From an uncultured Alphaproteobacteria bacterium (GTDB lineage Bacteria; Pseudomonadota; Alphaproteobacteria; HIMB59; GCA-002718135): a DNA stretch of 64,000 nt. The translations under genes were made by a program, and so were the position numbers. The notes below the pieces were generated by a model. The model saw only the letters and a program-made list of their open reading frames with translations. It did no database searches and had not been told where the DNA came from. The stretch covers positions 2,609-66,608 of the forward strand of contig CACMET010000007.1 of assembly GCA_902612825.1 (NCBI GenBank), given 5' to 3'. Numbering within the stretch: position 1 is the first letter of the stretch; each line of letters starts with the position of its first letter. Shown piece by piece: positions 46,334-63,930 of this stretch.

Positions 46334-46373
46334 AAAAAAAACAGGCGAACAAGTTAATTGTTCGCCTGTTTTT
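46334..46373 (-). terminator. Intrinsic terminator or attenuator after aglE
   Basis: AAAAACAGGCGAACAA-loop-TTGTTCGCCTGTTTTT, ending in a T8 tract on the minus strand. Confidence 0.8.
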
Positions 46374-46383
46374 AAGGAGGTAG

Positions 46384-47738: not shown

Positions 47739-47760
47739 ACCAAAACGTTTTGGTTGTCAA
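47739..47760. promoter_or_regulatory. LacI-type operator next to a -35 element for aglE
   Basis: Perfect 16-bp palindrome ACCAAAACGTTTTGGT (47739-47754) with central CG, abutting TTGACA on the minus strand (47760-47755), between aglE and the LacI gene. Confidence 0.75.
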
Positions 47761-47788
47761 TTCATTATTTCTCAGTTATTCATGTATT

Positions 47789-48825: not shown

Positions 48826-49821
48826 TTAAGAAGCAATTTCTTTGCGAATGTAATAACTATTATCTTTATGTTGTTTTATTATGGCCGGTATTATTTCTTT
48901 ATAAGCATCAAATAAGCTAGTGTTTGCTTTAGGTAGCTGATCTTTTATTAACTTACTTAGTTTTGGTAAATTATAAGAGGGTACAGATGGGAACATATGA
49001 TGTTCAACATGATATTCCATGTGCCAATATAAAAAGCTAAATATAGGATTAAAACGTACTGATCTAGTTGTGTATCTATGATCTTTAATATCTTCAGGAA
49101 GTCCTAGATGCTGAGTCATATTAAATATGTTGATGATGTTACCCCAGTATCTTGGGAAGAATATTAATAGTGCCGGAAGAGGGTTCATTAAATAGAATGA
49201 TAAAGCAAAGGATGCAACCCATAATAAAACATGTATTCTAGAAATGAGTCGGCATTTGCCAATTTCATTTTGAGGTATACAATCTCTCATAACAGGAGTG
49301 GTAAATCCTAATGCATGTTTTATGATTTCGTATTTAAATGAATGTTTAAAATATATTAGTTCGTAAAAAGGAACAAAACTAAATAAAAAACTTTTTAAGC
49401 TTGGGTATTGATGAAATAAAGCAGCTTCGAAATCATGAGGATCACTAACTGAGGACGTGTTACTGTGATGTCTGAAATGACTCCAAGTCCATCTTGTGGG
49501 TTCAAAGTCAGTCATGAAGGAACCAATTTGGTAAAAAATTTCATTTAAATACTTCGACTTAAATGCCGTTCTATGACCGCACTCATGCCAAATTGGATTA
49601 CTAGAATAAAAAAGAACACCATAAAGCCATAACCACAAGACTGTCCACCAAGTCCCCCATGTTGTTACTGACATGTAACCAAAGAAAAATAAAAGAATGA
49701 AATACAGGGTTACGTGTTGTATGCCTTTTAAATCACTTTTTTTTGATAGTTGTTTCAGATCTTTTTTACTTATTTCAGCTCTAAACCACTTATCATCAAC
49801 ATTATCAAGTTTATCTACCAT
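48826..49821 (-). CDS. Membrane di-iron desaturase/hydroxylase-superfamily enzyme, MocD-like
   Basis: His boxes WHECGH.TAF, SHFRHH and YHVEHHMFP; QH.GL...DHR..TRSVR.NP. Confidence 0.8.
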   Translation of the reverse strand: MVDKLDNVDDKWFRAEISKKDLKQLSKKSDLKGIQHVTLYFILLFFFGYMSVTTWGTWWTVLWLWLYGVLFYSSNPIWHECGHRTAFKSKYLNEIFYQIGSFMTDFEPTRWTWSHFRHHSNTSSVSDPHDFEAALFHQYPSLKSFLFSFVPFYELIYFKHSFKYEIIKHALGFTTPVMRDCIPQNEIGKCRLISRIHVLLWVASFALSFYLMNPLPALLIFFPRYWGNIINIFNMTQHLGLPEDIKDHRYTTRSVRFNPIFSFLYWHMEYHVEHHMFPSVPSYNLPKLSKLIKDQLPKANTSLFDAYKEIIPAIIKQHKDNSYYIRKEIAS

Positions 49822-49982
49822 ATCTATTTATACTATTAATATGAGAACATTTTAATATAAAAATGGATATTTTTTGTCACAATTAAGAAATTAGATGAAA
49901 AATAAAATTTATGGATCTAATATCAGTTTTCCAAATTTATTGATTTTTTCTGTCTTTTTAGTTACGATATTTAAATTCCATT

Positions 49983-50702
49983 ATGAAAATCAATAAAAAA
50001 AGTTTTGAGGAAAATGGCTATTTAGTGCTTCCCGATATTATTTCAAAATCTACATTATCTAAGCTCAACAAAAATGCTGATCAAATGATAAGTGATTTTA
50101 AAAAAGGTATTAATAGAAAACAATCAAATAATATTAGAAAAAAGCATGGTGATATCAGTAAAAATGGAAAAATTTTTTTTGGTAACCAGTGCGAATATTA
50201 TTCACATATAAATGCATATGCAAAGGGAAAGTTTGTAAAAAATATAGTTTCAAAAATATTGGGAAAGAAAATTTTTTTATTTAATGAACAACTGGTAAAT
50301 AAAAATCCAAACACACCTAGTTCTTTTAGTTGGCATCAAGATTCAGGCTATATTCATTTTAAACATAAACCCTACATATCGGTTTGGCTTGCCTTAACTG
50401 ATACAAATGAAAAAAATGGAGCTTTGAGTATTATTCCCACAAATTTAAAAAAAACTAAAAATGCAAAACTACATAGATGGCAAAACAAATCAAAGGATTT
50501 AGGAATCAAAGTTAATGAAAAAAAAGCAATTCAGCTTTGTGTTAGTGCTGGAACATTAATAATTTTTTCAAGTTTAACTCCTCATTCATCTAGTGCCAAT
50601 ATTACAAAAAAAAATCGGAAAGCATATTTATCTCAATACTCCTCTGAAAATATTATTGATCCTTTCAATGGTATTCAAAGAGGAAGAGCATATTTGATGT
50701 AA
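49983..50702 (+). CDS. PhyH-family Fe(II)/2OG dioxygenase
   Basis: F.ENGYLV, WHQD, WLAL.D...NGAL and TPHSS..N....R motifs. Confidence 0.82.
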   Translation: MKINKKSFEENGYLVLPDIISKSTLSKLNKNADQMISDFKKGINRKQSNNIRKKHGDISKNGKIFFGNQCEYYSHINAYAKGKFVKNIVSKILGKKIFLFNEQLVNKNPNTPSSFSWHQDSGYIHFKHKPYISVWLALTDTNEKNGALSIIPTNLKKTKNAKLHRWQNKSKDLGIKVNEKKAIQLCVSAGTLIIFSSLTPHSSSANITKKNRKAYLSQYSSENIIDPFNGIQRGRAYLM

Positions 50703-50704
50703 AT

Positions 50705-51538
50705 ATGAAAAAAATTTATAACTTTGCAGGAAATCTTAGTTATAGAAATTATACCATCAAAGATCTTTTTGATAATAAAGGTAAAAAAAAACTATCTCAA
50801 ATAAATGTAAAAAATGAAGAGGAGACTAACATTGCTCTTGATGCTAAAGTTGATTTATTAATTACAGGTCTTGCTGCGATTAAAAAAGTGAGATCAATTG
50901 CTAAAAATAATTTTATAACAGTAGCAATACCTTTCACTGAGTTTAAAACGAATGATGAAATTTTAAAGGCATCTTTAGAAGCTCTTAATAACGGTGCTGA
51001 TGCAATCTACACTGCACGATCTCCAAGAGTAGTTGAATATTTGGCAAAAGAGTCAATTCCAGTAATGGCACATTTAGGCTTGGTACCAAGAAAATCAATT
51101 TGGATTGGAGGACTAAGAGGAGTAGGAAAAACCACATCGGAGGCTTTAAAGTTATTTGAAGAATTTAAAACGATGGAAAATGCTGGAGCATTTGCAGTTG
51201 AAGCAGAGGTTATTGCAGATCAAACACTAAAATTTATTTCGGAAAATGTGAATTTAATAACAGTATCTTTAGGATCTGGAAACTACGGTGATGTAAATTA
51301 TTTGTTTATGGATGACATTTGTGGTGAGAATGAACAAATCCCTAGACATGCTTTTAGTTTGGCTAAAATTTATAAATTAAGAGACAAAATTTACAGAGAA
51401 AAAGTTAAAGCTGTGCATAAATTTAATAAAAAAGCCAAAACAACTAAATTTGTCACATCTCGAAATATAGTAAAGATTAATAATGCTGAGCTTCAAAAAT
51501 TTAAAAAAAAGGCCAAATTACTTAATAAATATAATTAA
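50705..51538 (+). CDS. Divergent PanB-like (ketopantoate hydroxymethyltransferase fold) protein
   Basis: IPVMAHLGLVP...GG.R.VGK, E.AGAFAVEAEV and VSLGSG motifs; canonical GDS motif absent. Confidence 0.75.
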   Translation: MKKIYNFAGNLSYRNYTIKDLFDNKGKKKLSQINVKNEEETNIALDAKVDLLITGLAAIKKVRSIAKNNFITVAIPFTEFKTNDEILKASLEALNNGADAIYTARSPRVVEYLAKESIPVMAHLGLVPRKSIWIGGLRGVGKTTSEALKLFEEFKTMENAGAFAVEAEVIADQTLKFISENVNLITVSLGSGNYGDVNYLFMDDICGENEQIPRHAFSLAKIYKLRDKIYREKVKAVHKFNKKAKTTKFVTSRNIVKINNAELQKFKKKAKLLNKYN

Positions 51539-51610
51539 ATATCCTTAAAAATTAGTATTTTAATTTAGTATTTTTTGTGATTAATTTTTCTTATTTTAGG
51601 AGGGTTAAGT

Positions 51611-52951
51611 ATGAAAAAAATACTATTTACTTTTATTTCTTCTATTTTGTTATTTTCTAATTCGGTTTTCAGTATGACACTATGGACTACTGAAACTCAA
51701 CCAGGAAGAATGCAAATTCAAGAAGAATTAATTGCAAGATTTACAGCAAAGACTGGAATTGAAGTTAAACTAGTTCCTCAGGAAGAAGATGAATTAATTG
51801 AAAAAGCTTCTGCTGCTTTTGCTGCTAACAGTTTACCTGATGTAATTTTTAACGCTGCATGCGTTAATTTTTGTGCTTGGGCTTATGATGAAGGAGTATT
51901 CGACTCAGATGCTGCAACAGAAATTGTTAATTCATTAGGAATTGATACATATAGTGCAAAAGGTGTATTAGCTATGTCAGAGGTCGAGCCAGGAGTATAT
52001 GCTTCTGTACCTTCAGGTGCATGGCCAAATGCTACTTACTATCGTATGAGCTATTACAATGATAATGGTTTAGCTACACCAACTAATTATGCAAATATTT
52101 TAGCTGGGGCTAAAGCTCTTCATAATCCACCAAATCGTTACGGAGCTATTGTTCCTACTGATGTTGCAGCTGGTTTTATGAGTCAATGGATGGAAACTTT
52201 TGCTATTGCTAATGGATTACACCCAGTAAAAGAAGATGGATCAATTAACTTTGATAAGAAAAAAACTATCGAAATGTTAGAAACTTATAAAGCTTTAGTT
52301 GAAATGTCACCTGAGGGTATCCATCACTGGCAAAATGGTAGAGACTTTTACGCAAGTGATGTTGTTCCATTAACTTTTTGGGCTTCTTATCTTTTAGATG
52401 ATATTGCAGGAACAAGAGACAATGTTCCAATTATGGTAGATGACAATCCACAATCTCTAGCATTAGCACAAGATACTAATGTTATAGTAGGTATGGCTGG
52501 TCCTTCTAATCCAGATGGTGGAACATGGGTTGAAGTTCACAACTTTGGTGTAACTGTTGATGCTAATACTGATGAAGCAGCAGCATTCATCGAATATGTT
52601 ATGAACGAAGAGTATGTTACTTGGTTAGGAATGGCTCCTGAAGGTAGTTTCCCTATTAGACCAGGACCAAGTGCTGGTTCAAAAATATTTATTGATGAAT
52701 GGGGTAATTTACCAATTGGAGTAGATAGAAAAATTCCAATAAACCAAATCTATTCAAATGAAATTATTGAATCACTAATTAACGGATTAGCTGTTGGTAC
52801 AAGATGGGGGGCTAAAGAAGGTCAACTTCCTGTCGCTGCTAAGTTAGTAAATAGTGGATTAATGAATAGGCTAATGATGGAATATATCAACGGCGATCGC
52901 TCTGCGGAAGATACTGTTGATATGCTAAATTCAGAAGCAGCAAAACTGTAA
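51611..52951 (+). CDS. Carbohydrate-type ABC solute-binding protein
   Basis: Signal peptide, LWTTE, TGIEV and LPDV motifs; GGAGG SD; followed by two permeases. Confidence 0.85.
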   Translation: MKKILFTFISSILLFSNSVFSMTLWTTETQPGRMQIQEELIARFTAKTGIEVKLVPQEEDELIEKASAAFAANSLPDVIFNAACVNFCAWAYDEGVFDSDAATEIVNSLGIDTYSAKGVLAMSEVEPGVYASVPSGAWPNATYYRMSYYNDNGLATPTNYANILAGAKALHNPPNRYGAIVPTDVAAGFMSQWMETFAIANGLHPVKEDGSINFDKKKTIEMLETYKALVEMSPEGIHHWQNGRDFYASDVVPLTFWASYLLDDIAGTRDNVPIMVDDNPQSLALAQDTNVIVGMAGPSNPDGGTWVEVHNFGVTVDANTDEAAAFIEYVMNEEYVTWLGMAPEGSFPIRPGPSAGSKIFIDEWGNLPIGVDRKIPINQIYSNEIIESLINGLAVGTRWGAKEGQLPVAAKLVNSGLMNRLMMEYINGDRSAEDTVDMLNSEAAKL

Positions 52952-52970
52952 TTTATATTAATTTATCTTA

Positions 52971-54245
52971 ATGGGCTCCAGTTCTTATAAAAAAAGAATG
53001 GGGCCCATTGAAAAACAAGGGGTAGTACAAGCTTATACAATGCTTGTCCCAACTGTGGCCATAGTTATGGCCATTGTATTATTTCCACTTATTGCTAATT
53101 TTTGGATAAGTTTTAAGGATGTTACTGTATCTGATTTAAGAATAGCTGAAATAAAAGTAACCGAAAAATTTCAAAAAAAACCAAAAACAAAAGGAGATAT
53201 TTCTAAAGTAGAGTATCGATTTAATAATTTTTCAAAAAGTTCAAATATAAAAAATGTAAACTTCAAAGATATTTTACCTAAAGGTTTAGTAATTAAAGAA
53301 CTACCTAATAACTGTTCTATCTCAGATAATATAATAAACTGTCAATTAGGTGATTTTAAACCAAAAGAAAAAAAGAAACTAAAATTTGAAACAATCGCAG
53401 AGAATGATTACTTTATTAGTCAGGAAAATCCAAAAGATACTTCACCAATTGTTAAAGGAAAATCAGAAAATAGATTATTAAACCTTGAATTAAAATTAAA
53501 AAATTTTGAAGAAATATTTACTTCACCAAACTTTTGGAAAACAATTAGAATAAGTTTTGCGTATTCTTTATTTTCTGCAATTGGATCGTTAACACTTGGT
53601 ATTTTAGCAGCACAACTACTGATGACCACCTTTATTGGCAGAGGCATTATACGTGGTATTTTTTTATTTCCATATATTGCACCAATTATAGCCGTTACTA
53701 TTACTTGGAAAATTTTAACTGATCCTTTTTTTGGAACAATCAATGGAATTCTTACGCAATTACAAATTTTAAATGAGCCTATTAGTTTCTTGCAAGTAAG
53801 AGATATGACAATTAATTTCATAGGTTTTGAATTTAGTTTCCCAGTTGCTTTATCATTTGTTATTTTATTTGAGTCTTGGAGATATTTTCCTTTAGCGATG
53901 ATTTTTATCTTAGCAAGATTACAGTCTGTTCCTAAAGAACTTTTTGAAGCTGCTGAAATTGATGGTGCTACACCTTTTCAAAAATTTAGAAGTATTACAT
54001 GGCCCTTAATTCTAGGAGTATTATTTGTTTTGTTTCTTCTTAGATTTATTTGGACATTTAATAAATTTGACGACATTTTTTTATTAACTGGAGGTGCCGC
54101 CGGAACTAAAACTTTAACTGTAGATGTTTATGAAACAGGTTTTAATATTGGTAATTTAGGAACTGGAGCGGCAAATGCAGTATTAGTTTTCTTAATATTA
54201 GTTTTCGCTGCAATATTTATAATAAGATTTTCACCGAAAGAATAA
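52971..54245 (+). CDS. MalF-type permease with an inserted Ig-like domain (start 52971 or 52998)
   Basis: EAAEIDGA and LRFIWTFNKFDD motifs; long hydrophilic insert after the first TM. Confidence 0.85.
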   Translation: MGSSSYKKRMGPIEKQGVVQAYTMLVPTVAIVMAIVLFPLIANFWISFKDVTVSDLRIAEIKVTEKFQKKPKTKGDISKVEYRFNNFSKSSNIKNVNFKDILPKGLVIKELPNNCSISDNIINCQLGDFKPKEKKKLKFETIAENDYFISQENPKDTSPIVKGKSENRLLNLELKLKNFEEIFTSPNFWKTIRISFAYSLFSAIGSLTLGILAAQLLMTTFIGRGIIRGIFLFPYIAPIIAVTITWKILTDPFFGTINGILTQLQILNEPISFLQVRDMTINFIGFEFSFPVALSFVILFESWRYFPLAMIFILARLQSVPKELFEAAEIDGATPFQKFRSITWPLILGVLFVLFLLRFIWTFNKFDDIFLLTGGAAGTKTLTVDVYETGFNIGNLGTGAANAVLVFLILVFAAIFIIRFSPKE

Positions 54246-54247
54246 GA

Positions 54248-55468
54248 ATGAGCAATAGTCAAAAAATTTTAATTTCTTTAATAATTAGTTCTTTTTGGGG
54301 GTTAATCAGTAATATTGTTTTAGGAGTATTTTTTATTCTTCTTATTGGAAGTACAATTCAATTTAATTATTTTTCTTATATTATTTCATCTTCAATAATC
54401 ACATTATTGATTGTTTTTTATGATAGAAAAAGCCTACAAATTTATATTAGTTTATTTATTTTAACTTTTATATTGATCTTAATTTTTACAGGCCTTTCTC
54501 CTTATGGTTTAAATATAAATGAAAATAGTTTTTTGCAGATATTATTTTTATTAATCCAATCATTTATAATATTAATAGGCAATATTATTTGTCTATCTGG
54601 AATCAATAAAATGTCTTTTAATAGATTATTTTTAGAAATTTTATTTATTAGGGTTTTAAAAGGTTTTGGTTTTACTTTCTTCTTAACAATTGTGTTATTT
54701 CCATTTTATGTAATGATTTTAATGAGCTTAAAAACTCATCAATTATTAATTCTTAATCCTCTTGATCTATCAATTGATATTACAAGAGGATTAAATATGT
54801 TTAGAAGTTATATTGAACTATTTACTGATTGGGGATTTGGTTATTACTTACTTAATTCATTAATAGTTTCTTTGTCTTCAATTTTTATTGCTTTAATTTT
54901 TGCAATACCGGGTGCTTATGCAGTTGCGAGATTTAATTTTCCAGGAAAATTATTAATGATTAACTCAATATTATTAATTTATTTAATCCCTATGATTACT
55001 TTGTTAATTCCTTTGTATTCATTTTTTACATTTATAAATTTAAGAGATTCTTTATTTGGACTTATAATTGTTTATCCTGCAGTTACTATTCCCGTAGCAA
55101 TTTATATGTTACAGGGATATTTTCAAACAATACCTCAAGAGCTGGAAGAAGCTGGTTTAGTTGATGGGTTATCAAGAACTGGGGTTATATTAAAAATTAC
55201 TTTACCTTTATCACTTCCAGCAATAGCTTCAGTTTCTCTATTTATTTTTATGGTAGCGTGGAATGAATATTTATTTGCATATATGTTTTTAGATACTCCA
55301 GCTATATTTACACTTCCAAGAGGTTTAGAACAATTAGATGGAACAGAGGTGCCAAGACAGCATTTGATGGCTGGTTCAGTTATTGCAACCGTACCTGTGA
55401 TAGCAGTTTTTTTATGGGCTGAAAGATACTTAACCGGAGGCTTAACTGCAGGAGGAATTAAAGGATAG
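54248..55468 (+). CDS. MalG-type permease with extra N-terminal TM segments
   Basis: ELEEAGLVDG, AWNEYLFA and GLTAGGIKG motifs. Confidence 0.85.
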   Translation: MSNSQKILISLIISSFWGLISNIVLGVFFILLIGSTIQFNYFSYIISSSIITLLIVFYDRKSLQIYISLFILTFILILIFTGLSPYGLNINENSFLQILFLLIQSFIILIGNIICLSGINKMSFNRLFLEILFIRVLKGFGFTFFLTIVLFPFYVMILMSLKTHQLLILNPLDLSIDITRGLNMFRSYIELFTDWGFGYYLLNSLIVSLSSIFIALIFAIPGAYAVARFNFPGKLLMINSILLIYLIPMITLLIPLYSFFTFINLRDSLFGLIIVYPAVTIPVAIYMLQGYFQTIPQELEEAGLVDGLSRTGVILKITLPLSLPAIASVSLFIFMVAWNEYLFAYMFLDTPAIFTLPRGLEQLDGTEVPRQHLMAGSVIATVPVIAVFLWAERYLTGGLTAGGIKG

Positions 55469-55471
55469 TAT

Positions 55472-56542
55472 TTAACTTAGATCTATCCATTCATTTTTTT
55501 CTGAACTTAAAAAACAACTATCTAAAATTTTTTGAATATCAGCACCTCTTTTGAAATCAGGTTGATCATTTTTACCAGAAATAATTGATGTTATAAATCT
55601 TTCATAGTTAGAGGGAGTAGGGTCAGTTTTTACAATTTCCCAATCCAAACTTTTTTCATCATTAGGAGAGGTGGCATTTATATCAGTGCATATTGAGTAG
55701 TAATTTCCCTGAGTTATAGGATCGTCAAATTTCATAGCTACTGCACCTTTGTCACAATATATGTTTAATTCTAATCTATTAACATTACCTGTTGCAAATC
55801 TAGTTGAATTTATTGTTCCTATAGCACCATTATCAAATTCTACCATTGAGATAAAAGAGTCATTAGCATCTAAAACGTATTCATCAATTTTCTCTCCTTT
55901 ATCTTTAAAGGTTTTAAGTCGACAATTTATTTTTTTAATATTACCAACTGGATACGATGCAAAATCAAATATATGAACACCAAGATCACCAAGAACTCCT
56001 TTACTGCCATGCTTTTCTGATAATCTCCATAACCATTTTTGTTCCTCTTTCCAATTACCCCAATACTTACATGTTAACCAAGATTGATAATAACTAGCAT
56101 CAACATGTCTGACTTTACCTAATTCATTATTATGCAAAACTTTACTTAAGTTTTGCCAACCAGAGGAATTTCTGTAACTCAGATTAACCATATTAATACA
56201 GTTTGTATTTGCTGATACTTTGTACATTTCCTCTGCATCTGGATAGTTTTCAGCTAAAGGTTTTTCTGAAAAAATGTGCTTATTTTTATTTAAAGATTTT
56301 AACGCAATTTCTTTGTGAAATGAATCAGGGGTTACATTGCTTATTGCATCAAGTTCACACTTATCAAGCATTTCATCAAAAGATGTGAACGTTTTATCAA
56401 TATTATATTCTTTAGCAAAATTTAAGACTCTTTCTTCTATGACATCACAAACTGCAACTATTTCTACATCTTTAATATTTTTAAATGCTGTTGCATGGGC
56501 ATTAGCCATCCCTCCAGTACCAACAATTCCTAACTTAATCAT
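55472..56542 (-). CDS. thuB: Gfo/Idh/MocA oxidoreductase, ThuB-like
   Basis: GTGGMA..H, SEKPLA, YYQSW and WLWRLS..HGS.GVLGD.GVH motifs; directly downstream of thuA. Confidence 0.7.
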
Positions 56543-57325
56543 TTTTTATAATTATGATCTACTTGATAGCCTTTTACTTCAATTGGTTGAACAGGATCTT
56601 TTCTTTCCATGTTATCAATACCTTTTGCTATTCTGTCTATCCACAAACCAGATGTTTTTTCAGGACAAACCCAATGAATAGAATTTTTAATTACTCTTTG
56701 AACATCTTTATTATAATAAACAGGATAAGATTCATGTCCTGGTCTGAAATAAAATATTTTTCCATTTCCTCTTTTGTAACAAAGACCAGATCTAAATACC
56801 TCTCCGCCTTCAAACCAACTCACAAAAACTGTTTCATCTGGGGCAGGGACCTGAAAAGGCTCACCATACATTTCGGTCATCTCAATTTCAAAATATTCTC
56901 CTAAGCCCTCTGCAATAGGATGACCTGGGTTACAAACCCAAACTCTTTCCATTTCACCTCTTTCAGCCCATCTAATATTTGCAGTTGTACCCATCATTCG
57001 TTTGAAAATTTTAGAATGATGTCCTGAATGTAATACCAGAAGACCCATTCCTTCTAAAACTCTTTGCTGAACTCTATCGACAATTTTATCTTCAACCAAC
57101 TTATGAGCTTTATGACCCCACCAAATTAACACATCTGTTTTATCTAATAATTCTTCACTTAAGCCATGATCCTCTTCTTTTAATGTTGCAGTTTTAATAT
57201 TAAGACTTTTATCATCAGATAAAAAATTCTTTAATACAACCGTGAATTCCCTTTGGGTAAATTGATTTTACATGTTCATCCTCTTGTTCATGAACAAATT
57301 CATTCCAAATAACTACGTTTACCAT
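56539..57325 (-). pseudogene. thuA: Trehalose utilisation protein ThuA, interrupted by a +1 frameshift
   Basis: ATG 57325 reads MVNVVIWNEFVHE...[13 protein letters not shown] and then stops. Removing one A from the A6 run at 57221-57226 rejoins LSDD...[24 protein letters not shown] (261 aa). Confidence 0.8.
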
Positions 57326-57327
57326 TG

Positions 57328-58302
57328 CTACCTTACTCTCCCTCCGTGAAATCTGTGACCAAGAATTGCGAGTATAATAATCAATCCATTAAAAAATTGC
57401 CTCCATACCCCACTCATTCCCATTGCCACAACTCCAACTTCCATATATGCAATAACACCAACACCAAACACAGCTCCTATAATCGTTCCTACGCCTCCCC
57501 ATGTGGGAGTTCCTCCAATAAAGACAGCAGCTAGAGCAAGTAATAAGTAGCCAAATCCTTGTGTTGGCCACCAGGTAAAATTAATTAAACAGGAAAAAAT
57601 TCCTGCAAGTGCCGCACCTAAACCAACATACATGAACGCACTAATTCTTACCCAATTAACATTAATTCCCATTTGTGCAGCTGAGTCTGGATTATCTCCA
57701 ACATGATGAATATGGATTCCAAACACATGTTTCCTATAAAGATAATAGGAAAATATTGTAAATAACGCAGCCCAGTAAACTTGCATTGGAACCCCAAAAA
57801 GTTTCCCAACTAATACATCGTAGATCCAGTGATCAGAAATTTCCATAAAAGAAATTGATTTACTATCACTAGCAACAAACAAAAATCCTCTTATAAAAAA
57901 TAGTGCTCCAAGAGAAGCAACCAACGATGAAAGGCGTCCGTAAACAACTAAACATCCCATAAGTATTCCAACTACTGCACCAGATAATATTCCTATCAAA
58001 ATACATAATAATGGATCAAGTCCTGCCTTTAATAGAAGAGCAAAAATGTATGCTGACAATCCAAAAGTAGAGGCAAAAGACAAATCTATTTCTCCTGCAG
58101 TAACTAAAAAAACAAGAGGGATAACCATAAACATAATTACTGGAAGCATTACAAAAACAGATTGATGTAAATTTGGTCTCATCATTACTTCTGGAGCCCC
58201 AATTAGAAAAACCAACATTAAAATTATAAAGTAACCTAAACTTCCTAATGCTCTTCCATTTTTTCCAATTAAATTTTTAAATGTACTTTCTTTGGTGCTC
58301 AT
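57328..58302 (-). CDS. Ribose/monosaccharide-type ABC permease
   Basis: GEIDLS, GDN..SA..MGI and AAVFIGGT motifs. Confidence 0.87.
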   Translation of the reverse strand: MSTKESTFKNLIGKNGRALGSLGYFIILMLVFLIGAPEVMMRPNLHQSVFVMLPVIMFMVIPLVFLVTAGEIDLSFASTFGLSAYIFALLLKAGLDPLLCILIGILSGAVVGILMGCLVVYGRLSSLVASLGALFFIRGFLFVASDSKSISFMEISDHWIYDVLVGKLFGVPMQVYWAALFTIFSYYLYRKHVFGIHIHHVGDNPDSAAQMGINVNWVRISAFMYVGLGAALAGIFSCLINFTWWPTQGFGYLLLALAAVFIGGTPTWGGVGTIIGAVFGVGVIAYMEVGVVAMGMSGVWRQFFNGLIIILAILGHRFHGGRVR

Positions 58303-59048
58303 TAATGTTTACTCACTGCATCTTTCATAACTTTCATAAGTGCTTCAGGCCCCTCAATGTCATTTTTATTTAATTGATGAACGACTTCACCTCTGTCTAA
58401 AACAATAAATCTATCAGAGATATCATAGACATGATAAATATTGTGACCAATAAATAAAACTGATCTTCCAGATTTTTTTACATTATCTACAAAATCAAAA
58501 ACTTTTTGAGTTTCAATGAGTGAAAGGGCTGTAGTTGGCTCATCTAATACAATTAATTCTGCATTGTTATAAATGGCTCTTGCTATAGCTACTCCTTGTC
58601 TTTCACCACCTGATAAATTACCTACAGGTGATTCCGCATCTATTAATTTTGATGTAAAACCAATTTCTCTAATTAATTTGTTTGCTTCTCTTACTTGTTC
58701 TTTTTCCCTTATAAAACCAAATCTATGTTTTAATTCTTTACCCATAAAAATATTCCACACTATCGATTGTTGTGGACATAAAGCTCTGTCTTGAAAAACA
58801 GTTTCTATTCCAGCCTCTCTGGCTTTTGAGGCATTCCAATTTTTAACTTCATTTCCTCTAATTATAATTTGACCATCGTCAGGAGCATGAACACCAACTA
58901 ACGTTTTAATTAAGGTAGATTTACCAGCTCCATTATCTCCAATAAGTCCAACAACTTCTCCAACATCAACTTTTATTGATGCTTTTTTTAATGCTGTGAT
59001 TCCGCCAAAACTTTTGGAAACATTTTTAAGTTCTATTATTGCACTCAT
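58302..59048 (-). CDS. Single-domain monosaccharide ABC ATPase
   Basis: GDNGAGKST, LSGGERQ and LDEPT motifs. Confidence 0.88.
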   Translation of the reverse strand: MSAIIELKNVSKSFGGITALKKASIKVDVGEVVGLIGDNGAGKSTLIKTLVGVHAPDDGQIIIRGNEVKNWNASKAREAGIETVFQDRALCPQQSIVWNIFMGKELKHRFGFIREKEQVREANKLIREIGFTSKLIDAESPVGNLSGGERQGVAIARAIYNNAELIVLDEPTTALSLIETQKVFDFVDNVKKSGRSVLFIGHNIYHVYDISDRFIVLDRGEVVHQLNKNDIEGPEALMKVMKDAVSKH

Positions 59049-59054
59049 ATATGT

Positions 59055-59081
59055 AGCTGATCTACTTACAGTAGATCAGCT
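59055..59081 (-). terminator. Stem-loop after the SBP gene
   Basis: AGCTGATCTACT-tac-AGTAGATCAGCT perfect inverted repeat with no U-tract. Confidence 0.55.
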
Positions 59082-59094
59082 CTGTTTGATATAT

Positions 59095-60084
59095 TTATCT
59101 TAAACCTGCGTTAGCAAGTTCCATAACAGATTTATAATTTTCAGTATGTACAAATCCTGCACCAGTATCTTGATTTAATGCTCCAGTTCCAAGAACTTTC
59201 ATTTGACATAAAGCAAGTACAGGTAGGTAGCCTTGTAAGAATGGTTGCTGATCAGAAGTTAAATGAACATAACCATTTTCAAAAGCCGTCATGATTTGTG
59301 GACTAGTATCAAAGCCGATTTGCAATAATTCTCCTGGACCATATCCAGCAGCTTTAGCATATGCCTCAGCATTTCCTAGTTTTTGACCACCATCATGTAC
59401 AATAATTTTTGTATCAGGATTTGCAGCTAGTGCAGCTGAAAACACAGGGATTGCAAGATTTGGATCAGTTGCTTGTTCTGGAGTACCATCTAGAACTACA
59501 ACATTCATTCCATGTTCTTCAAAAATTATTCTAGCACCATCTTCTCTTTGTGCTCTTGAATAATCTCCAATTGGAACCATTACAATAGCAGTATCACCAG
59601 CTTTAAGATCAAATCTTCTAATCGCTTCTCTTGCCAATTCTTTACCTTGAGTTGCAAGATTTGCACCAACGTATCCACCTCCAAAAGCAGCTCTTACTGC
59701 AGGAACATCAACGTTTTGATACATCATTAAGATACCAGCTTCACTAGCCATTTTAGCTAGTGGCATAATTGCATCATCACCCGGGTGACCCATCATACCA
59801 ATACCATCAACTCCTGCACCAATAGCTTCTCTTAGTTGTTGTATCATTCTGTCTGACTGCCATTCTGAATAAAGAATTTCTGCATCAGCACCAGTATCTC
59901 TAATAGCATTTTCAGCACCAGTTTGAACTATTCCAGCAAAACCATCACCTTCAGCTCCACCAGCAAAGAAGTGAATTCTTACATCACTACACCATCCATC
60001 ACCTAAGTTTTTATCAATAGCATAAACTGAACCACTGAAAGAAAAAACGAAGAGTGTTGATAATAAAATTTTTAATATTTTCAT
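59095..60084 (-). CDS. RbsB/LacI-fold sugar solute-binding protein
   Basis: Signal peptide, YVGAN, GFD.S and DQQPFLQGYLP motifs; GGAGGA SD. Confidence 0.85.
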   Translation of the reverse strand: MKILKILLSTLFVFSFSGSVYAIDKNLGDGWCSDVRIHFFAGGAEGDGFAGIVQTGAENAIRDTGADAEILYSEWQSDRMIQQLREAIGAGVDGIGMMGHPGDDAIMPLAKMASEAGILMMYQNVDVPAVRAAFGGGYVGANLATQGKELAREAIRRFDLKAGDTAIVMVPIGDYSRAQREDGARIIFEEHGMNVVVLDGTPEQATDPNLAIPVFSAALAANPDTKIIVHDGGQKLGNAEAYAKAAGYGPGELLQIGFDTSPQIMTAFENGYVHLTSDQQPFLQGYLPVLALCQMKVLGTGALNQDTGAGFVHTENYKSVMELANAGLR

Positions 60085-60116
60085 TATTCCTCCCTTGAAT
60101 AAATATAATGTAAATG

Positions 60117-60145
60117 AACTTAAAAAATTAAATTAGTAATGTCAA
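60117..60145 (-). promoter_or_regulatory. Putative sigma70 promoter for the SBP operon
   Basis: Minus strand reads TTGACA-17 nt-TAAGTT, about 30 nt upstream of the SBP start. Confidence 0.5.
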
Positions 60146-60146
60146 C

Positions 60147-61583
60147 CTAGTAGAGTCTTTTACTAATCCTTTTAGTCTGTCCGTGACTATACACCCCATC
60201 TACGCCACCATCTCTTCCATAACCTGATCTTTTGTAACCACCACCTGGAAGATTATTTCCATCAACAAACCAATCATTTTGCCAAATTATTCCAGCCTGA
60301 ATTCTATCAGCAGTCCATTTTGCTTTTTGGTCATCTGAAGTAAATACTCCGGAAGCAAGACCGTATTTTGTTGAATTAGCTATACTTATTGCTTCTTCTT
60401 CATCTTCAAAATCAAATATTGATGTTACAGGGCCAAATATTTCTTCTTGAGCAATTGTTGCATCAACTTTAACATTATCAAAAATAGTTGGTTGGTAAAA
60501 ATTACCATCGTCTCTCTCAGCTTTATCCCCGCCTATTGTTAAAGTAGCACCTGATTGTACACCAGATTTTACATAATTTGAAACTCTTTGCATTTGATCA
60601 GTTGAGATTAAAGGTGTTACTTCCGTTCCATCTTCGTCACCTGCACCTATTTTTAATTTTTGCGTTTTTGCAACAAGCTTTGTCATATACTCATCTTTAA
60701 TTTTTGGATGAACTATAACTCTAGACATTGCCACACATATTTGACCTGCATTTGGTTTAAAAATTCCTTTAACTGTACTGTCTACAGCTTTATCAATGTC
60801 AGCATCGGGATAGATTATAGCTGCGGACTTTCCTCCTAATTCAAAATGAGTAGGTATAATTCTATCTGCTGTTTCTTTAAGAATTTCTGAAGCAACTTCA
60901 GGTGATCCAGTAAATACAATATAATCACTTCCTGGATGTTGGACTAATTTTCGACCAGTTGTTTCTCCATAACCGTGAAGAATATTTATAATTCCTTTTG
61001 GAACACCAACATCCTCAAAAATTTGACCATAAAAATTAGACGATATAGGACAAAGTTCAGGAGGTTTTATAACTATGGTATTTCCCACTATCCAATTCTG
61101 CGCAACCATTCCAGAAAATATAGAAACAGGATAATTCCAAGGTACAATTTGAAGCGCAACTCCAAAAGGTTCTAAAACAACATAGTTTAAAGTATCTTTA
61201 CCAGATGGAATTAATTTATTTTCTATTTTGTCTGTTAATCCTGCATAAAAATCAAAGGTATCAGCAGCACCTTTGAATTCATCAATACATTGTTTATTCG
61301 TTTTACCATTTTCTTGGCTTAAAAGTTTACCACCTTCTTCTTTTCTTTCTCTTAATTTTTGAGCAATGGCTCTCATCATATTTGATTTATCTTTTGCATC
61401 CATATCAACCAAAATTCTTTTATCGAATGCCTTTTTTGCAGCCTGAAAAGCTAAATCTATTTCTTCATCCAAAGCTTCATCAATATTACCAACAATTTTT
61501 TGATTAGCCGGATTTAATACAGGAATATTTTTCTTTGAGAGTGAATCAATGAATTTACCATCAATAAAATTTCTTAACTCCAT
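60147..61583 (-). CDS. Aldehyde dehydrogenase
   Basis: PWNYP, FTGS, ELGGKS, GQIC and EEIFGPV motifs. Confidence 0.9.
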   Translation of the reverse strand: MELRNFIDGKFIDSLSKKNIPVLNPANQKIVGNIDEALDEEIDLAFQAAKKAFDKRILVDMDAKDKSNMMRAIAQKLRERKEEGGKLLSQENGKTNKQCIDEFKGAADTFDFYAGLTDKIENKLIPSGKDTLNYVVLEPFGVALQIVPWNYPVSIFSGMVAQNWIVGNTIVIKPPELCPISSNFYGQIFEDVGVPKGIINILHGYGETTGRKLVQHPGSDYIVFTGSPEVASEILKETADRIIPTHFELGGKSAAIIYPDADIDKAVDSTVKGIFKPNAGQICVAMSRVIVHPKIKDEYMTKLVAKTQKLKIGAGDEDGTEVTPLISTDQMQRVSNYVKSGVQSGATLTIGGDKAERDDGNFYQPTIFDNVKVDATIAQEEIFGPVTSIFDFEDEEEAISIANSTKYGLASGVFTSDDQKAKWTADRIQAGIIWQNDWFVDGNNLPGGGYKRSGYGRDGGVDGVYSHGQTKRISKRLY

Positions 61584-61730
61584 ATAAAAATATAGATAAA
61601 ACTAAAGCTGAAGATGTGTCAAGTATAGTTTAATTATTCGGAACTTGAATAGGAATAAAATAGTCTGGAAAGTATTTTTAATATTAAACTTAAACATTTA
61701 ATTAGTCCTAATTTTGTGGTAATTTTAAAT

Positions 61731-62906
61731 ATGGAAGAATTAAATAAAATTTTCCAACATTATTTAGATCAAAAGACTTTTCCAGGAATTCAGTGGTCTA
61801 TTTATAAAGATGGAAAATACTTATCTGGTAAACTTGGTTATTCAAATATTGAAACTCTCAAAGAAATAGAAGACGATACAATTTACAGAATATTTTCAAT
61901 GACTAAGCCTATAATAGCAATAGTCACAATGCAACTTGTAGAAAAAAAATTAATAAATTTAGATGATCCAGTTGATAAATATTTAACCGAATTTCAAAAT
62001 CTAAAAGTTATGAAAAATAACAAAGAATCAATAAGTGATATTGAAGACTTAAAAATAAAACCAACAATAAAAAATCTTTTACAACATACTGCAGGCTTTA
62101 GTTACGGATTTCTTCCTGATGCGCTTGCTGCTGAGTATACGAAACAAAAATTATTTAATGAAAGATTATTATCTGATGAAATAAAATTATTATCTAAATT
62201 TCCTTTGTACAGTCAGCCTATGACAGAATGGCGATATTCTGTTTGTATAGATGTTTTAGCAAGAATATTAGAGATGGTTCTCAATAAGAAACTTCAAAAT
62301 ATTCTTAAAGATAATATTTTTGACCCTCTTGATATGCAAGATACTGGATTTTCTTTAGATAACAAAAAATCTCAGAGGTTGATGACATTGTATCAATATG
62401 ATTCACAAAGTAAAAAGTTAATTGAAGAAAAAAATCCGCAAGATTATCCTATAAACAGTGAAACCTATGCGCGAGGAGGCCATGGTCTGTATTCTACAAT
62501 GAAAGATTATAACAAATTTTGTAAGATGCTTTTAAACGGAAAATCAGATTCTGGAGTTCAAATAATTAGTGAAAAAACTTTAAATTTAATTATTAAAAAT
62601 ACTTTACCAGAAAATCTTTTACCTATGAAAATAGAAGGGATAGATGGACTTTCAGAAGAAGGTGATAATGGTCTTGAGCCATATGGTTGGGGTTTAGGTT
62701 TTAGGACAATGTTATTTCCAGAAAAAAACAAAAATATTGGAGAATTTGAAGAATTTGGATGGGCTGGAGCAGCTTCAACTTATTTTTTAGTAGATATAAA
62801 AAATAATTTATTTGCTACATTAATGACTCACGTTTTAAATGGTGATAGAAAACTAAATGTGGATTTTTATGAATTTATTTACAGTACTTTTTTGAGCTCT
62901 AAGTAA
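61731..62906 (+). CDS. Serine hydrolase, beta-lactamase/esterase family
   Basis: SMTK nucleophile motif, LLQHTAG, WRYS, GGHGLYST and FGWAGAA. Confidence 0.85.
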   Translation: MEELNKIFQHYLDQKTFPGIQWSIYKDGKYLSGKLGYSNIETLKEIEDDTIYRIFSMTKPIIAIVTMQLVEKKLINLDDPVDKYLTEFQNLKVMKNNKESISDIEDLKIKPTIKNLLQHTAGFSYGFLPDALAAEYTKQKLFNERLLSDEIKLLSKFPLYSQPMTEWRYSVCIDVLARILEMVLNKKLQNILKDNIFDPLDMQDTGFSLDNKKSQRLMTLYQYDSQSKKLIEEKNPQDYPINSETYARGGHGLYSTMKDYNKFCKMLLNGKSDSGVQIISEKTLNLIIKNTLPENLLPMKIEGIDGLSEEGDNGLEPYGWGLGFRTMLFPEKNKNIGEFEEFGWAGAASTYFLVDIKNNLFATLMTHVLNGDRKLNVDFYEFIYSTFLSSK

Positions 62907-62919
62907 ATGAAATTAATAT

Positions 62920-63930
62920 CTAATTGTTAGGTAGCTGAACTGGTATAAAATAATCAGGGTTTTTAGATTTTTTTATTACTGCAGGTAAAATTTCTTTATA
63001 AGCTTGGTATAGGGTTTGAGGTTCTGGCATTTGATCTTTTATTACTTCATATAATTTTGGAAGATTGTAGGAAGGCACCATAGGAAACATATGATGTTCA
63101 ATATGGTATTCCATCTTCCAATAAATAAAACTAAAAATCGGATTAAGTCTAACAGATCTTGTTGATAGTCGGTGATCTTTGGCGCTTTCTTTTAGACCCA
63201 TATGTTGTGTTACACCCCAGATACCATTAATGCCAAAGAACTTTGGTATTAAAAATAAAAATATTGGCAAAAAGGTAGAAAAGTAAATTGAGACAGCTAT
63301 TATTGTAATCCATAGAAGAACAAAAATTCTAGAGCTATTTATACAATCATTAATTTTATCTTCTGGAATGCAATCTTTCATCACATCAGTCCTAATGCCT
63401 AAAGCATGTTTAATAATTTCTACATAAAGAGATTTATGAATTGTAAAAAAACCAATTCCAGGAATAAAATTTAAAATAAAACTTAAAAATGTATGTTTAG
63501 CAAAAATACTACCATCAACTTCGTAGTCATGAGGATCAACTGAAGCAGTATAGCTATGATGAAGAGAGTGACTCCACTTCCATCTAACAGGTTCAAAATT
63601 ATTCATAAAACTAGCAATGTTATAGAAGAATTTATTTAATCTTCTATTTCTGAAAGCAGTTCCATGACCACACTCATGCCAAATAGCATCAGCTCCACCC
63701 CACATCGTAGAATAAGCAAGGTATACAGGTATAAACCACAAGCTATGCCATGTATATATCGATAATAAACCTAGAGCACCTAATGATAGTGAATAAATAA
63801 TAATATGTTTCCACCCCTCAAAATCTGATCTTTTGGAAAGTTTTTTTAGAGTTTTCCTATCTATATTAGCCCTAAACCATTCTTCTGATATGTTGTTTAT
63901 CCCTGTTTGAACTTTTTTAGTTTCTGACAT
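62920..63930 (-). CDS. Second MocD-like membrane di-iron enzyme
   Basis: WHECGHGTAF, WSHSLHH and YHIEHHMFP motifs; paralog of 48826-49821. Confidence 0.8.
   Translation of the reverse strand: MSETKKVQTGINNISEEWFRANIDRKTLKKLSKRSDFEGWKHIIIYSLSLGALGLLSIYTWHSLWFIPVYLAYSTMWGGADAIWHECGHGTAFRNRRLNKFFYNIASFMNNFEPVRWKWSHSLHHSYTASVDPHDYEVDGSIFAKHTFLSFILNFIPGIGFFTIHKSLYVEIIKHALGIRTDVMKDCIPEDKINDCINSSRIFVLLWITIIAVSIYFSTFLPIFLFLIPKFFGINGIWGVTQHMGLKESAKDHRLSTRSVRLNPIFSFIYWKMEYHIEHHMFPMVPSYNLPKLYEVIKDQMPEPQTLYQAYKEILPAVIKKSKNPDYFIPVQLPNN

Follow-up and report, generated by a model that had tools for sequence, protein, structure and literature searches.

Bahar et al. in 1998 reportedly described a rhizobial locus, mocCABRDEF, for catabolism of the rhizopine 3-O-methyl-scyllo-inosamine. 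We know of no reported in vitro assay of MocD, which counts against the lead reading given below. A second related system is ThuAB of rhizobia and Agrobacterium, a 3-keto-disaccharide-forming pair. The 1998 study is cited in PMC10107442 and PMC5789663. In the latter, homologs of mocDEF in R. mesoamericanum are up 1.5- to 2.1-fold in a root exudate with pinitol as its main measured component. In marine Bacteroidetes, a P450 system lies in an algal-sugar utilisation locus, formaldehyde is released, and a conserved dehydrogenase adjoins the oxygenase (PMC6292453, PMC9400963, PMC10033563).

The window is the whole stretch of DNA that was analysed, 64,000 nucleotides in length, and belongs to a genome of 1.36 Mb (completeness 79%). 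Every gene listed for the block in an initial annotation was recovered in its place using open reading frames, Pfam, and NCBIfam. The limits of the block hold for the genes at 48826-63930, but the left edge arguably lies at 43013, taking in a LacI regulator and a third ABC system. The features are as follows.

62920-63930, minus strand: MocD2, predicted MocD-clade membrane di-iron oxygenase (FA_desaturase PF00487, 124.2 bits)
61716-62906, plus strand: family VIII (beta-lactamase-fold) esterase, a variable insert (PF00144, 171.8 bits)
60147-61583, minus strand: aldehyde dehydrogenase, ALDH (PF00171, 491.4 bits)
59095-60084, minus strand: CUT2-type periplasmic binding protein (PF13407, 91.1 bits)
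58302-59048, minus strand: single-domain ABC ATPase of 248 aa (PF00005, 112.2 bits)
57328-58302, minus strand: CUT2-type permease (PF02653, 123.6 bits)
56539-57325, minus strand: ThuA-family protein, frameshifted (PF06283, 88.8 bits on the 197-aa downstream part)
55472-56542, minus strand: Gfo/Idh/MocA dehydrogenase, ThuB/IolG-like (PF01408, PF22725, PF02894)
51611-55468, plus strand: CUT1-type importer, binding protein and two permeases (SBP_bac_8, 63.1 bits; two BPD_transp_1)
50705-51538, plus strand: PanB-like protein of the MocD-associated subfamily, within the variable insert (PF02548, 96.6 bits)
49983-50702, plus strand: PhyH-family Fe(II)/2-oxoglutarate dioxygenase, within the variable insert (PF05721, 99 bits)
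48826-49821, minus strand: MocD1, predicted MocD-clade membrane di-iron oxygenase (PF00487, 114.2 bits)
47750-48808, plus strand: LacI-family regulator adjoining MocD1 (PF00356, PF13377)
43013-47691, minus strand: third ABC importer, with CUT1 binding protein, two permeases, and MalK-like ATPase (Pfam)
22411-23412, plus strand: IolG, inositol 2-dehydrogenase, in the same window but outside the block (TIGR04380, 384 bits; cut-off 355)

The core operon lies on the minus strand throughout. It begins with MocD2, continues through ALDH, binding protein, ATPase, permease, ThuA, and the Gfo/Idh/MocA dehydrogenase, and ends with MocD1. The operon is conserved in all nine relatives from the genus for which the retrieved sequence reaches from one oxygenase to the other, and ALDH adjoins the MocD2 orthologue in each of these complete loci (9/9). 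Conservation of the neighbourhood thus holds for the core, but the PhyH/PanB-like/CUT1 module and the esterase behave as inserts that vary between loci. The CUT1 importer, which is without its own ATPase, is limited to the long version of the block. The esterase gene is found in 3 of the 11 genus loci examined, and one RNA-library contig (n=1) joins 61669 to 63014 without it. Beside MocD1, the third ABC importer is kept in relatives, and the LacI regulator is present in only some of them. RNA-library contigs from two studies span much of the operon, and those covering the binding protein at 59095-60084 are 95-99% alike.

MocD1 and MocD2 share 50% identity across 323 aa, and their orthologue groups are sisters. 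The claim that two paralogs are kept is correct as far as it goes, but the genome encodes seven members of the PF00487 family. The three His boxes are invariant (H85/H89, H121/H124/H125, and H276/H279/H280 in MocD2), and MocD2 also has H243 and H253. In a 39-row tree, six of the seven paralogs and two sister-genus copies form one clade (SH-aLRT 99). The clade joins, with support of 100, one holding an R. etli protein that is annotated only as 'MocD-like', a limit that counts against the lead reading. DesA-like, DesB-like, and GntB-like rows fall outside. The proposed phylogeny therefore places the oxygenases with rhizobial MocD-like proteins and apart from DesA/DesB-like desaturases. Searches with tblastn returned 316 plasmid records, predominantly from Rhizobium and Sinorhizobium, with identity reaching 39.5% at 99% query coverage. 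The AF2 model of MocD1 (pLDDT 89.1) matches AlkB (8sbb_A, TMq 0.53) better than SCD1 (0.34), and no solved chain gave a sequence-level match at E<=1. The pair of genes annotated as fatty acid desaturases more probably encodes membrane iron oxygenases of the MocD type known from rhizobia.

The observation that the window has no Rieske ferredoxin or reductase extends to the whole contig. PF00355 matches occur only on contigs C2 and C1, and the only Reductase_C match of the genome is a reductase on C2. A search of the genome for mocE and mocF was nonetheless productive. On C2, a Rieske ferredoxin passes the TIGR02377 MocE_fam model (136.7 against a cut-off of 136.15) and lies with the reductase between two further oxygenase paralogs, near a second PanB-like gene. 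MocD1 and MocD2 would draw on this pair from another contig, a dependence that counts against the lead reading. In the sister genus, MocD-like and PanB-like genes occur together without any MocE-family match in 15 of 16 genomes. The partnership with MocE is therefore not obligatory, which also counts against that reading.

MocD-like, MocE, reductase, and PanB-like genes form a single module in Rhizobium, Sinorhizobium, and a roseobacter, where it often adjoins inositol genes. The PanB-like gene follows the module in R. etli, S. meliloti 1021, and Aestuarium, and LacI genes flank 28 of 38 rhizobial loci. On an Aestuarium plasmid, MocD-like, Rieske, and PanB-like genes adjoin a rhizopine-binding SBP, iolG, iolC, and iolD. 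At locus L101, a MocD-like gene lies within an iolD...iolC-iolB-iolE cluster. A cyclitol link is thus plausible, since MocD-like genes lie inside iol clusters of relatives and a roseobacter plasmid and since IolG, IolD, and IolE of this genome exceed curated cut-offs. IolG of the window is 40% identical to the iolG product annotated in the Aestuarium iol cluster.

The PanB-like protein at 50705-51538 scores 79.2 bits against TIGR00222 panB (cut-off 207.55). It retains equivalents of E. coli PanB H136 and E181 but has lost those of D45, D84, K112, and E114, which we take to be metal and substrate residues. The subfamily has an invariant Tyr in place of K112. The AF2 model (pLDDT 90.5) has PanB as its best fold match (TM 0.62-0.67). 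In PMC3082293, the R. etli p42e member failed to rescue a panB mutant and no pantothenate was made. True PanB identity was rejected on the replaced residues, the score below the equivalog cut-off, and this negative result (PMC3082293). The protein accompanies the MocD-type oxygenase family as a conserved partner and is not a pantothenate enzyme. One idea is that it passes a C1 unit to folate.

The thuAB genes named for the block are present as ThuA and Gfo/Idh/MocA genes, but a single additional T at 57221-57226 shifts the reading frame of thuA in the window (a run of T6, where two relatives have T5). The gene is intact at 260-261 aa in 9/9 relatives, and the extra T is absent from contigs of X1, X7, and X15 (two DNA runs and one RNA-library run). 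In this assembly thuA is broken, which counts against the lead reading. The dehydrogenase at 55472-56542 is closer to levoglucosan dehydrogenase (161 bits, cut-off 650) than to IolG (109, cut-off 355), which counts against a cyclitol. The same is true of ALDH, which is not IolA-like by NCBIfam. Its best match is betaine-aldehyde dehydrogenase at 433 bits (cut-off 668.6), so it falls below every equivalog cut-off. The binding protein at 59095-60084 best matches the rhizopine-catabolism SBP NF052284 (75.6 bits against 420). Among the inserts, the esterase shows an S-M-T-K motif and best matches methyl acetate hydrolase AcmB (164 bits against 550), and PhyH (49983-50702) shows H-x-D and a distal His. 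The PhyH/PanB-like/CUT1 insert probably handles a second, related substrate.

The lead reading, at a probability of roughly 0.5, is that the block serves to import and break down a substituted cyclitol or monosaccharide as one catabolic operon, with the following proposed steps. The compound would enter through the CUT2-type importer. NAD(P)H electrons would pass through the single ferredoxin reductase and the single MocE-family Rieske ferredoxin of C2 to two MocD-type di-iron monooxygenases, which would hydroxylate a methyl-type C-H bond. The likeliest target would be an O-methyl ether, giving the free hydroxyl compound and formaldehyde; alternatively, a C-methyl or deoxy position may be hydroxylated. 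The Gfo/Idh/MocA-ThuA pair would convert a ring hydroxyl to the keto form, ALDH would oxidise the aldehyde product, and the carbon skeleton would enter the genome-encoded inositol pathway or sugar-acid pathways. The PhyH/PanB-like/CUT1 importer set and the esterase would be two optional insertions in this strain. The most likely function is to demethylate oxidatively, or to hydroxylate, a substituted cyclitol or sugar, and the initial annotation is partly supported as a whole. With this operon a small marine bacterium could probably take up an inositol-like or sugar compound and remove a methyl-type group from it.

A less likely reading is that the substrate is not a cyclitol but a small glycoside or a sugar in methylated or deoxy form, e.g., 6-O-methyl-galactose, other O-methyl hexoses, or 6-deoxy-hexoses. 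The oxygenases would demethylate this substrate or hydroxylate its C6, with a 3-keto sugar then formed by the ThuA/Gfo pair as in ThuAB-type pathways. The presence of that pair and the levoglucosan (C3) dehydrogenase match favor this; to our knowledge ThuA/ThuB-type pairs act in glycoside and not cyclitol catabolism, a point against a cyclitol. YcjN is among the closest solved relatives of the inserted CUT1 binding protein, the C2 cluster has a lactonase and an IlvD/Edd-type sugar-acid dehydratase, and three sulfatases adjoin paralog C2c, which has a second PhyH gene directly upstream. There is also precedent in marine Bacteroidetes, where a P450 with ferredoxin and reductase demethylates 6-O-methyl-galactose oxidatively (PMC6292453, PMC9400963). 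Against a sugar, the module outside this lineage accompanies iol genes and rhizopine-type binding proteins, the rhizopine SBP model is the best match for CUT2 importers of this type, and Pfam identified no glycoside hydrolase among the block genes.

Action on N-methylated or amino compounds (amino-cyclitols, quaternary amines) with release of C1 units is unlikely. Rhizopine is itself an inosamine, ALDH best matches betaine-aldehyde dehydrogenase, and GntB, the nearest NCBIfam model by score, hydroxylates free L-arginine according to its description. The sister-genus MocD-like/PanB-like pair adjoins genes resembling glutamine synthetase and gamma-butyrobetaine hydroxylase and a Rieske oxygenase alpha subunit. 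The window operon, however, combines sugar-type transport with ThuA and Gfo/Idh/MocA, and no aminotransferase or amine-type importer was found in it by Pfam and NCBIfam. It is very improbable that the proteins are ordinary acyl-lipid desaturases or hydroxylases with a role in tuning membrane lipids and only a chance position beside sugar genes. The Pfam family is FA_desaturase and the fold resembles membrane desaturase and AlkB structures, but scores against DesA/DesB equivalogs are 23-49 bits (cut-offs 500) and the tree separates these rows. Six of the seven copies lie in transport/catabolic operons with sugar-type ABC importers, each paralog group keeps its own distinct gene context (ALDH always follows MocD2 orthologues), and across Alphaproteobacteria the family is associated with MocE, reductase, and PanB-like genes. 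A genome of 1.36 Mb would also have little evident need for seven lipid desaturases.

Compared with rhizobial MocDEF, the oxygenases belong to the same protein family in a sister clade, and the genome has a MocE-family ferredoxin and the same reductase type. Shared features also include the kind of CUT2 binding protein, a Gfo/Idh/MocA dehydrogenase nearby, and the link to inositol genes. Identity to the rhizobial proteins is only 36-40%, and six clade members have radiated within one small genome. Two oxygenases are encoded in the window operon, which brings no ferredoxin or reductase of its own, and the block is without MocR and a MocC-like TIM-barrel gene. The operon has ThuA and ALDH, whereas rhizobial loci have them in 0/38 and 1/38 cases.

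The P450/ferredoxin/reductase system for 6-O-methyl-D-galactose demethylation in marine Bacteroidetes is likewise a three-part oxygenase system (PMC6292453, PMC9400963, PMC10033563). Unlike the proteins here, it uses a haem P450 fold unrelated to membrane di-iron enzymes, belongs to another phylum, and has an established substrate. AlkB alkane 1-monooxygenase (PDB 8sbb, 8f6t) has the membrane di-iron His-box fold predicted here by modelling (TMq 0.53), terminal methyl hydroxylation (here proposed), and a soluble iron-sulfur electron carrier. The carrier is rubredoxin in AlkB and a Rieske-type ferredoxin here, and the context is hydrocarbons in AlkB and polar solutes here. The modelled PanB-like protein resembles ketopantoate hydroxymethyltransferase PanB (PDB 1m3u, 3vav, 1oy0) in fold, Pfam family, and H136/E181, but it falls below NCBIfam equivalog cut-offs and the four replaced positions are changed across the subfamily. 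As in ThuAB, the ThuA-family gene overlaps that of the Gfo/Idh/MocA dehydrogenase, and both lie within an operon for an ABC importer; this importer is of the CUT2 type (for monosaccharides or cyclitols) here and the CUT1 system thuEFGK there.

The block of interest is bounded by two genes of the MocD type.

48826-49821 (-): MocD1; PF00487 (FA_desaturase), 114.2 bits against a cut-off of 29.7
62920-63930 (-): MocD2; PF00487 (FA_desaturase), 124.2 bits against a cut-off of 29.7

The enclosed genes encode a PhyH dioxygenase, a PanB-like protein, and components of two classes of sugar-type ABC importer: two permeases and a binding protein of the CUT1 type, and a permease, a single-domain ATPase, and a binding protein of the CUT2 type. 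An aldehyde dehydrogenase (ALDH) and a beta-lactamase-fold esterase with an S-x-x-K motif in its translation are also present. A gene with a ThuA domain (PF06283, 88.8 bits) adjoins a Gfo/Idh/MocA dehydrogenase gene, and the two overlap at 56539-56542. Every gene named in the initial annotation was recovered, where it had been placed, in the ORF list and in scans against Pfam and NCBIfam. At 61722, just past the GTG predicted to start the esterase, one extra T appears in contigs from two DNA runs, so the true start or 5' frame of this gene may differ from the listed ORF.

MocD1 and MocD2 are histidine-box proteins. The boxes HX3H, HX2HH, and HX2HH (H85/H89, H121/H124/H125, and H276/H279/H280) are invariant among 11 aligned sequences, as are H243 and H253, and the box histidines stay invariant in a wider alignment of 54 sequences. 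A tblastn search of plasmids matched 316 records, mostly from Rhizobium or Sinorhizobium; 272 cover 80% or more of the query, identity reaches 39.5%, and one is annotated as a 'hydrocarbon oxygenase MocD-like protein'. In fold comparison, the MocD1 model from AF2 (pLDDT 89.1) aligns with two algal FtsHi-motor complex chains (TMq 0.62-0.63), then with AlkB (TMq 0.53), with SCD1 lower at 0.34. For MocD2, phmmer against all solved chains returned nothing at E<=1.

Thirty-nine rows went into a maximum-likelihood tree: the genome's seven paralogs, three copies from the sister genus, the MocD-like protein of R. etli, and 28 of the 29 best FA_desaturase proteins in 121 sampled genomes of the phylum (L040 was omitted because L039 is its twin from the same genus). 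Six of the paralogs form one clade with two sister-genus copies (SH-aLRT 99), and this joins the clade containing the R. etli protein to give 12 rows with support of 100. The DesA-like, DesB-like, and GntB-like rows fall outside it. NCBIfam names almost none of the 28 sample proteins, and the outgroups therefore carry the labels 'DesA-like' (335 and 352 bits against 500) and 'DesB-like' (212 bits). The grouping is one with a rhizobial reference that is 'MocD-like' by annotation, in a tree without AlkB, CrtW, or authentic MocD. According to PMC5789663, mocDEF homologs of R. mesoamericanum are 59.7-79.3% identical to the authentic genes.

The initial annotation drew attention to the keeping of two paralogs in a streamlined genome. 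The bracketing pair is real, at 50% identity across 323 residues, but it belongs to a larger set: the genome (1.36 Mb in 43 contigs, 78.9% complete) carries seven PF00487 genes, six of them clustered with sugar-type ABC importers. In the phylum sample, PF00487 is present in 53 of 120 complete genomes, and those with 5-8 copies are genomes of 2.3-8 Mb. The seventh paralog (locus L012, G000:C3:75001-95000, 9711-10730 (+)) is flanked by genes for an EamA transporter and an ion channel. Unrelated to the MocD clade, it groups with four proteins of the phylum sample on long branches, and most genus relatives have it.

The initial annotation saw no Rieske ferredoxin or reductase in the window; Pfam profile searches find no such gene on the whole contig, and MocE and MocF genes are thus not adjacent to MocD1 or MocD2. 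One of each is found on contig C2 of the same genome, beside two other paralogs. There, one strand encodes a MocD-like protein, a ferredoxin reductase with Pyr_redox_2 and Reductase_C domains, and a Rieske ferredoxin whose score of 136.7 exceeds the curated MocE-family threshold of 136.15. The same strand of this cluster also has the second PanB-like gene, one more MocD-like gene, and genes for a PF04116 fatty-acid-hydroxylase-family protein, a lactonase, and an IlvD/Edd dehydratase; a CUT2 importer is divergent upstream of the cluster. In profile searches of all contigs, the ferredoxin and the reductase are the sole ones of their types in the genome; a single electron chain probably serves all MocD-like copies.

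The PF04116 membrane protein (locus L010, G000:C2:44001-64000, 7196-8200 (-)) directly follows a MocD-like gene, an adjacency kept in relatives, and is a different type of di-iron oxygenase in the same cluster. A third MocD-like paralog of this contig, C2c, is preceded by a second PhyH gene and a CUT2 importer and lies ~9 kb from a bona fide iolD. Just downstream of C2c are three sulfatase genes and a CUT1 importer (locus L011, G000:C2:110001-130000, 1343-9119 (-)), which hints at the use of sulfated algal sugars.

Conservation of the block was examined in 11 loci from genus relatives, nine of which span both oxygenases. A short form, in six of the nine, runs MocD2, ALDH, binding protein, ATPase, permease, ThuA, dehydrogenase, MocD1 on one strand. 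The other three have the long form of the window, with PhyH, PanB-like, and CUT1 genes between the dehydrogenase and MocD1; the esterase occurs in 3 of the 11 loci. The core is thus an eight-gene operon, and the remaining pieces are strain-variable inserts. The block read as one pathway by the initial annotation is therefore conserved in this core, but not in its PhyH/PanB-like/CUT1 module or its esterase. The groups of MocD1 and MocD2 have support of 100 each in a family tree of 54 rows and are sisters at 97; every paralog group retains its own gene neighbours. In more distant orthologues of MocD2 (61-73% identity, loci L083-L086) the operon includes a PanB-like gene, and L084 has a Rieske gene upstream as well.

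Family copy number is 1-8 per genome in the genus, where genomes are incomplete, and 0-2 in the sister genus. A MocE-family match is found in 16 of 24 genus relatives versus 1 of 16 sister-genus genomes. Sister-genus genomes without such a match still hold an adjacent MocD-like and PanB-like pair, so MocE is not always required, and another electron donor must serve in those 15 genomes. In two sister-genus loci (L025 and L026, genomes G025 and G034) the paired genes overlap or abut, and their neighbours are a glutamine-synthetase-like gene, a Rieske oxygenase alpha subunit, and a gamma-butyrobetaine-hydroxylase-like gene.

A module of MocD-like, MocE, reductase, and PanB-like genes is found outside this lineage as well. 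Plasmids of R. etli carry genes for LacI, a MocD-like protein, a MocE ferredoxin, an FAD reductase, and a 'ketopantoate hydroxymethyltransferase', with a TIM-barrel gene alongside. The four-gene order of R. etli recurs on pSymB of S. meliloti 1021, with genes called by BLAST against our own references. An Aestuarium plasmid has MocD-like, Rieske, and PanB-like genes adjoining a 'rhizopine-binding protein', ABC genes, iolG, iolC, and iolD. In marine locus L101, a MocD-like gene lies within an iolD...iolC-iolB-iolE cluster. Neighbours were tallied at 78 loci of species-representative genomes.

Genes within 9 kb of MocD-like genes at 38 non-marine (mostly Rhizobiales) and 40 marine low-GC loci
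Rieske ferredoxin: 37/38 non-marine, 10/40 marine
Reductase: 24/38 non-marine, 9/40 marine
PanB-like: 25/38 non-marine, 16/40 marine
LacI: 28/38 non-marine, 5/40 marine
CUT2 binding protein: 17/38 non-marine, 29/40 marine
IolG-like: 15/38 non-marine, 0/40 marine
Gfo/Idh/MocA dehydrogenase of the window's type: 0/38 non-marine, 21/40 marine
ALDH: 1/38 non-marine, 14/40 marine
ThuA: 0/38 non-marine, 12/40 marine
PhyH: 0/38 non-marine, 10/40 marine

The PanB-like protein of the window matches PF02548 but scores far under the equivalog cut-offs for PanB (TIGR00222, 79.2 against 207.55; NF001452, 86.8 against 272). Seven MocD-linked members were aligned with E. coli PanB, in which D45, D84, K112, and E114 are metal and substrate residues. 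All seven have A or G at the D84 position, Y at K112, and a replacement of E114, and all lack the VGDS motif containing D45. The GxG...D...D motifs are kept, as are the equivalents of H136 and E181, which have catalytic roles in PanB. Y102, H123, E166, E168, D196, D204, and H215 are invariant in 38 subfamily members, where the K112 position is always tyrosine, and this conservation makes an enzymatic role likely for the subfamily. The AF2 model (pLDDT 90.5) has PanB structures as its best PDB matches (TM 0.62-0.67), and a protein-atlas search returned solely clusters auto-named PanB. A predicted complex of MocD1 with this protein scored 0.00 in both runs, which counts neither for nor against pairing.

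A member of this subfamily has very probably been studied already. According to PMC3082293, the 'second panB' of R. etli plasmid p42e, RHE_PE00443 (270 aa), has only 5 of 12 invariant active-site residues and no detectable metal-binding domain. It does not keep a panB mutant from becoming auxotrophic for pantothenate, nor does it complement that auxotrophy. One panB-annotated gene was seen on p42e, after the MocD-like, MocE, and reductase genes; its identity with RHE_PE00443 is therefore very probable. No canonical panB was found in the 79%-complete assembly of the window's genome, where both PF02548 genes belong to the MocD-linked subfamily. An additional ~264-aa class in relatives scores weakly against the subfamily profile (76-108 bits) and may be the true panB, so the absence is probably an assembly gap.

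Inositol genes are present in the same genome. The window encodes IolG at 22411-23412 (+) (TIGR04380, 384 bits against 355), ~26 kb upstream of the block and surrounded by further Gfo/Idh/MocA and SDR genes. IolD (771 against 715) and IolE (377 against 290) are found in the genome; IolC_N (294.2 against 300) and IolB (168 against 205) fall just under their cut-offs and are encoded by adjacent genes on contig C3.

Other parts of the window have different content. Positions 1-20400 form an amine and C1 catabolic stretch with a sarcosine-oxidase/GcvT-type protein, a creatinase-like M24 peptidase, a polyamine-type ABC importer, a glutamine-synthetase-like gene, two ALDHs, and an iron alcohol dehydrogenase. 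A TauD-family dioxygenase at 24345-25421 (+) is closest to TmpA, the 2-trimethylaminoethylphosphonate dioxygenase (319 bits against 400), and to gamma-butyrobetaine dioxygenase. At 26499-36337 (+), a GH20 hexosaminidase gene lies with a CUT1 importer, an amidohydrolase, and SIS-domain genes, a set that resembles a cluster for the use of amino sugars of the GlcNAc type.

About half of the sampled words of the window were found in marine metagenome runs from at least 10 studies, and 17-30% in six RNA-library runs. Contigs of two DNA and two RNA-library runs, blind to strand, transcript limits, and expression level, were compared with the locus, and both kinds cover the operon. In the assembly, thuA is broken by one extra T in the run at 57221-57226 (T6; relatives have T5), and the gene is intact at 260-261 aa in all nine genus loci. 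The extra T is absent from contigs of X1, X7, and X15 (two DNA runs and one RNA-library run), so the frameshift is peculiar to this assembly, as either an assembly error or a rare broken variant. One RNA-library contig links 61669 directly to 63014, skipping the esterase. In both RNA-library runs, contigs are missing over most of that gene, which says nothing about silence.

Family membership, gene order, conservation, and the presence of electron carriers and iol pathway genes in the genome are directly established, and a general catabolic scheme can be proposed from them with a probability of about 0.5. The CUT2 system would import the substrate, and MocD1 and MocD2 would mono-oxygenate a methyl-type C-H with electrons from the C2 reductase and MocE ferredoxin. 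The dehydrogenase-ThuA pair would oxidise the ring and the ALDH the aldehyde, and the product would enter inositol or sugar-acid catabolism. Within this scheme, a methylated cyclitol is the favoured substrate.

A route for methylated or deoxy sugars is distinctly less probable, yet it is the strongest rival. The block has the ThuA and Gfo/Idh/MocA dehydrogenase pair of a ThuAB-type 3-keto-sugar system, and the importer of the core operon is of the CUT2 type (PF13407 plus PF02653, one ATPase); a thuEFGK-like trehalose/sucrose-type CUT1 importer is not found in that operon. Against solved structures, the two binding proteins match generic sugar-binding proteins only, and no ligand can be inferred from them. 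An N-methyl or amino compound as substrate is improbable. Every NCBIfam match of the two oxygenases is far under its cut-off; the best are DesA/DesB and GntB, a free-arginine hydroxylase by its model description, the latter at 35.5 and 50.1 bits against a cut-off of 380. True lipid desaturation would suit the Pfam name FA_desaturase and is very improbable; the DesA/DesB equivalogs for acyl-lipid desaturases score 22.9-48.7 bits against 500, and such rows lie outside the MocD clade.

Beyond the favoured cyclitol scheme, a speculative extension joins the MocD clade and its PanB-like partner in a folate-coupled 'methyl-harvesting' system, which is unlikely. The membrane oxygenase would hydroxylate a methyl group, O- or C-linked, of a cyclitol or sugar, and the PanB-like protein would hand the hydroxymethyl or formaldehyde unit to tetrahydrofolate, having retained the PanB fold and general-base residues and lost the keto-acid/Mg site. 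The six oxygenase copies, each with its own importer, would then act on six different methylated substrates. Methylated sugars and cyclitols are thought to be part of marine organic matter and to be unusable by ordinary sugar pathways. If the extension holds, methylated dissolved organic matter would supply streamlined ocean bacteria with a C1 unit as well as a usable carbon skeleton. A very small genome would be giving over to the proposed demethylation six members of a single oxygenase clade, each of them linked to an importer, and near-identical DNA occurs in both marine metagenomes and RNA libraries.

In the main texts of open-access papers and preprints, no description was found of a marine radiation of the MocD family, of a two-oxygenase operon with ThuA and ALDH, or of a conserved PanB-like partner and a function for the MocD-MocE-PanB-like module. 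The comparative paper on AEGEAN-169/HIMB59 (PMC10308909) nowhere mentions inositol, rhizopine, or desaturase. The sole demethylation route described for marine bacteria in the papers found is the P450 system of Bacteroidetes. Identified substrates would give a concrete function to the many genes, marine and rhizobial, that carry the label fatty acid desaturase, and to a PanB-like family now wrongly annotated as a vitamin B5 enzyme. MocDEF itself is a known system that is, to our knowledge, biochemically uncharacterised, and the same substrates would provide the first biochemical handle on it.
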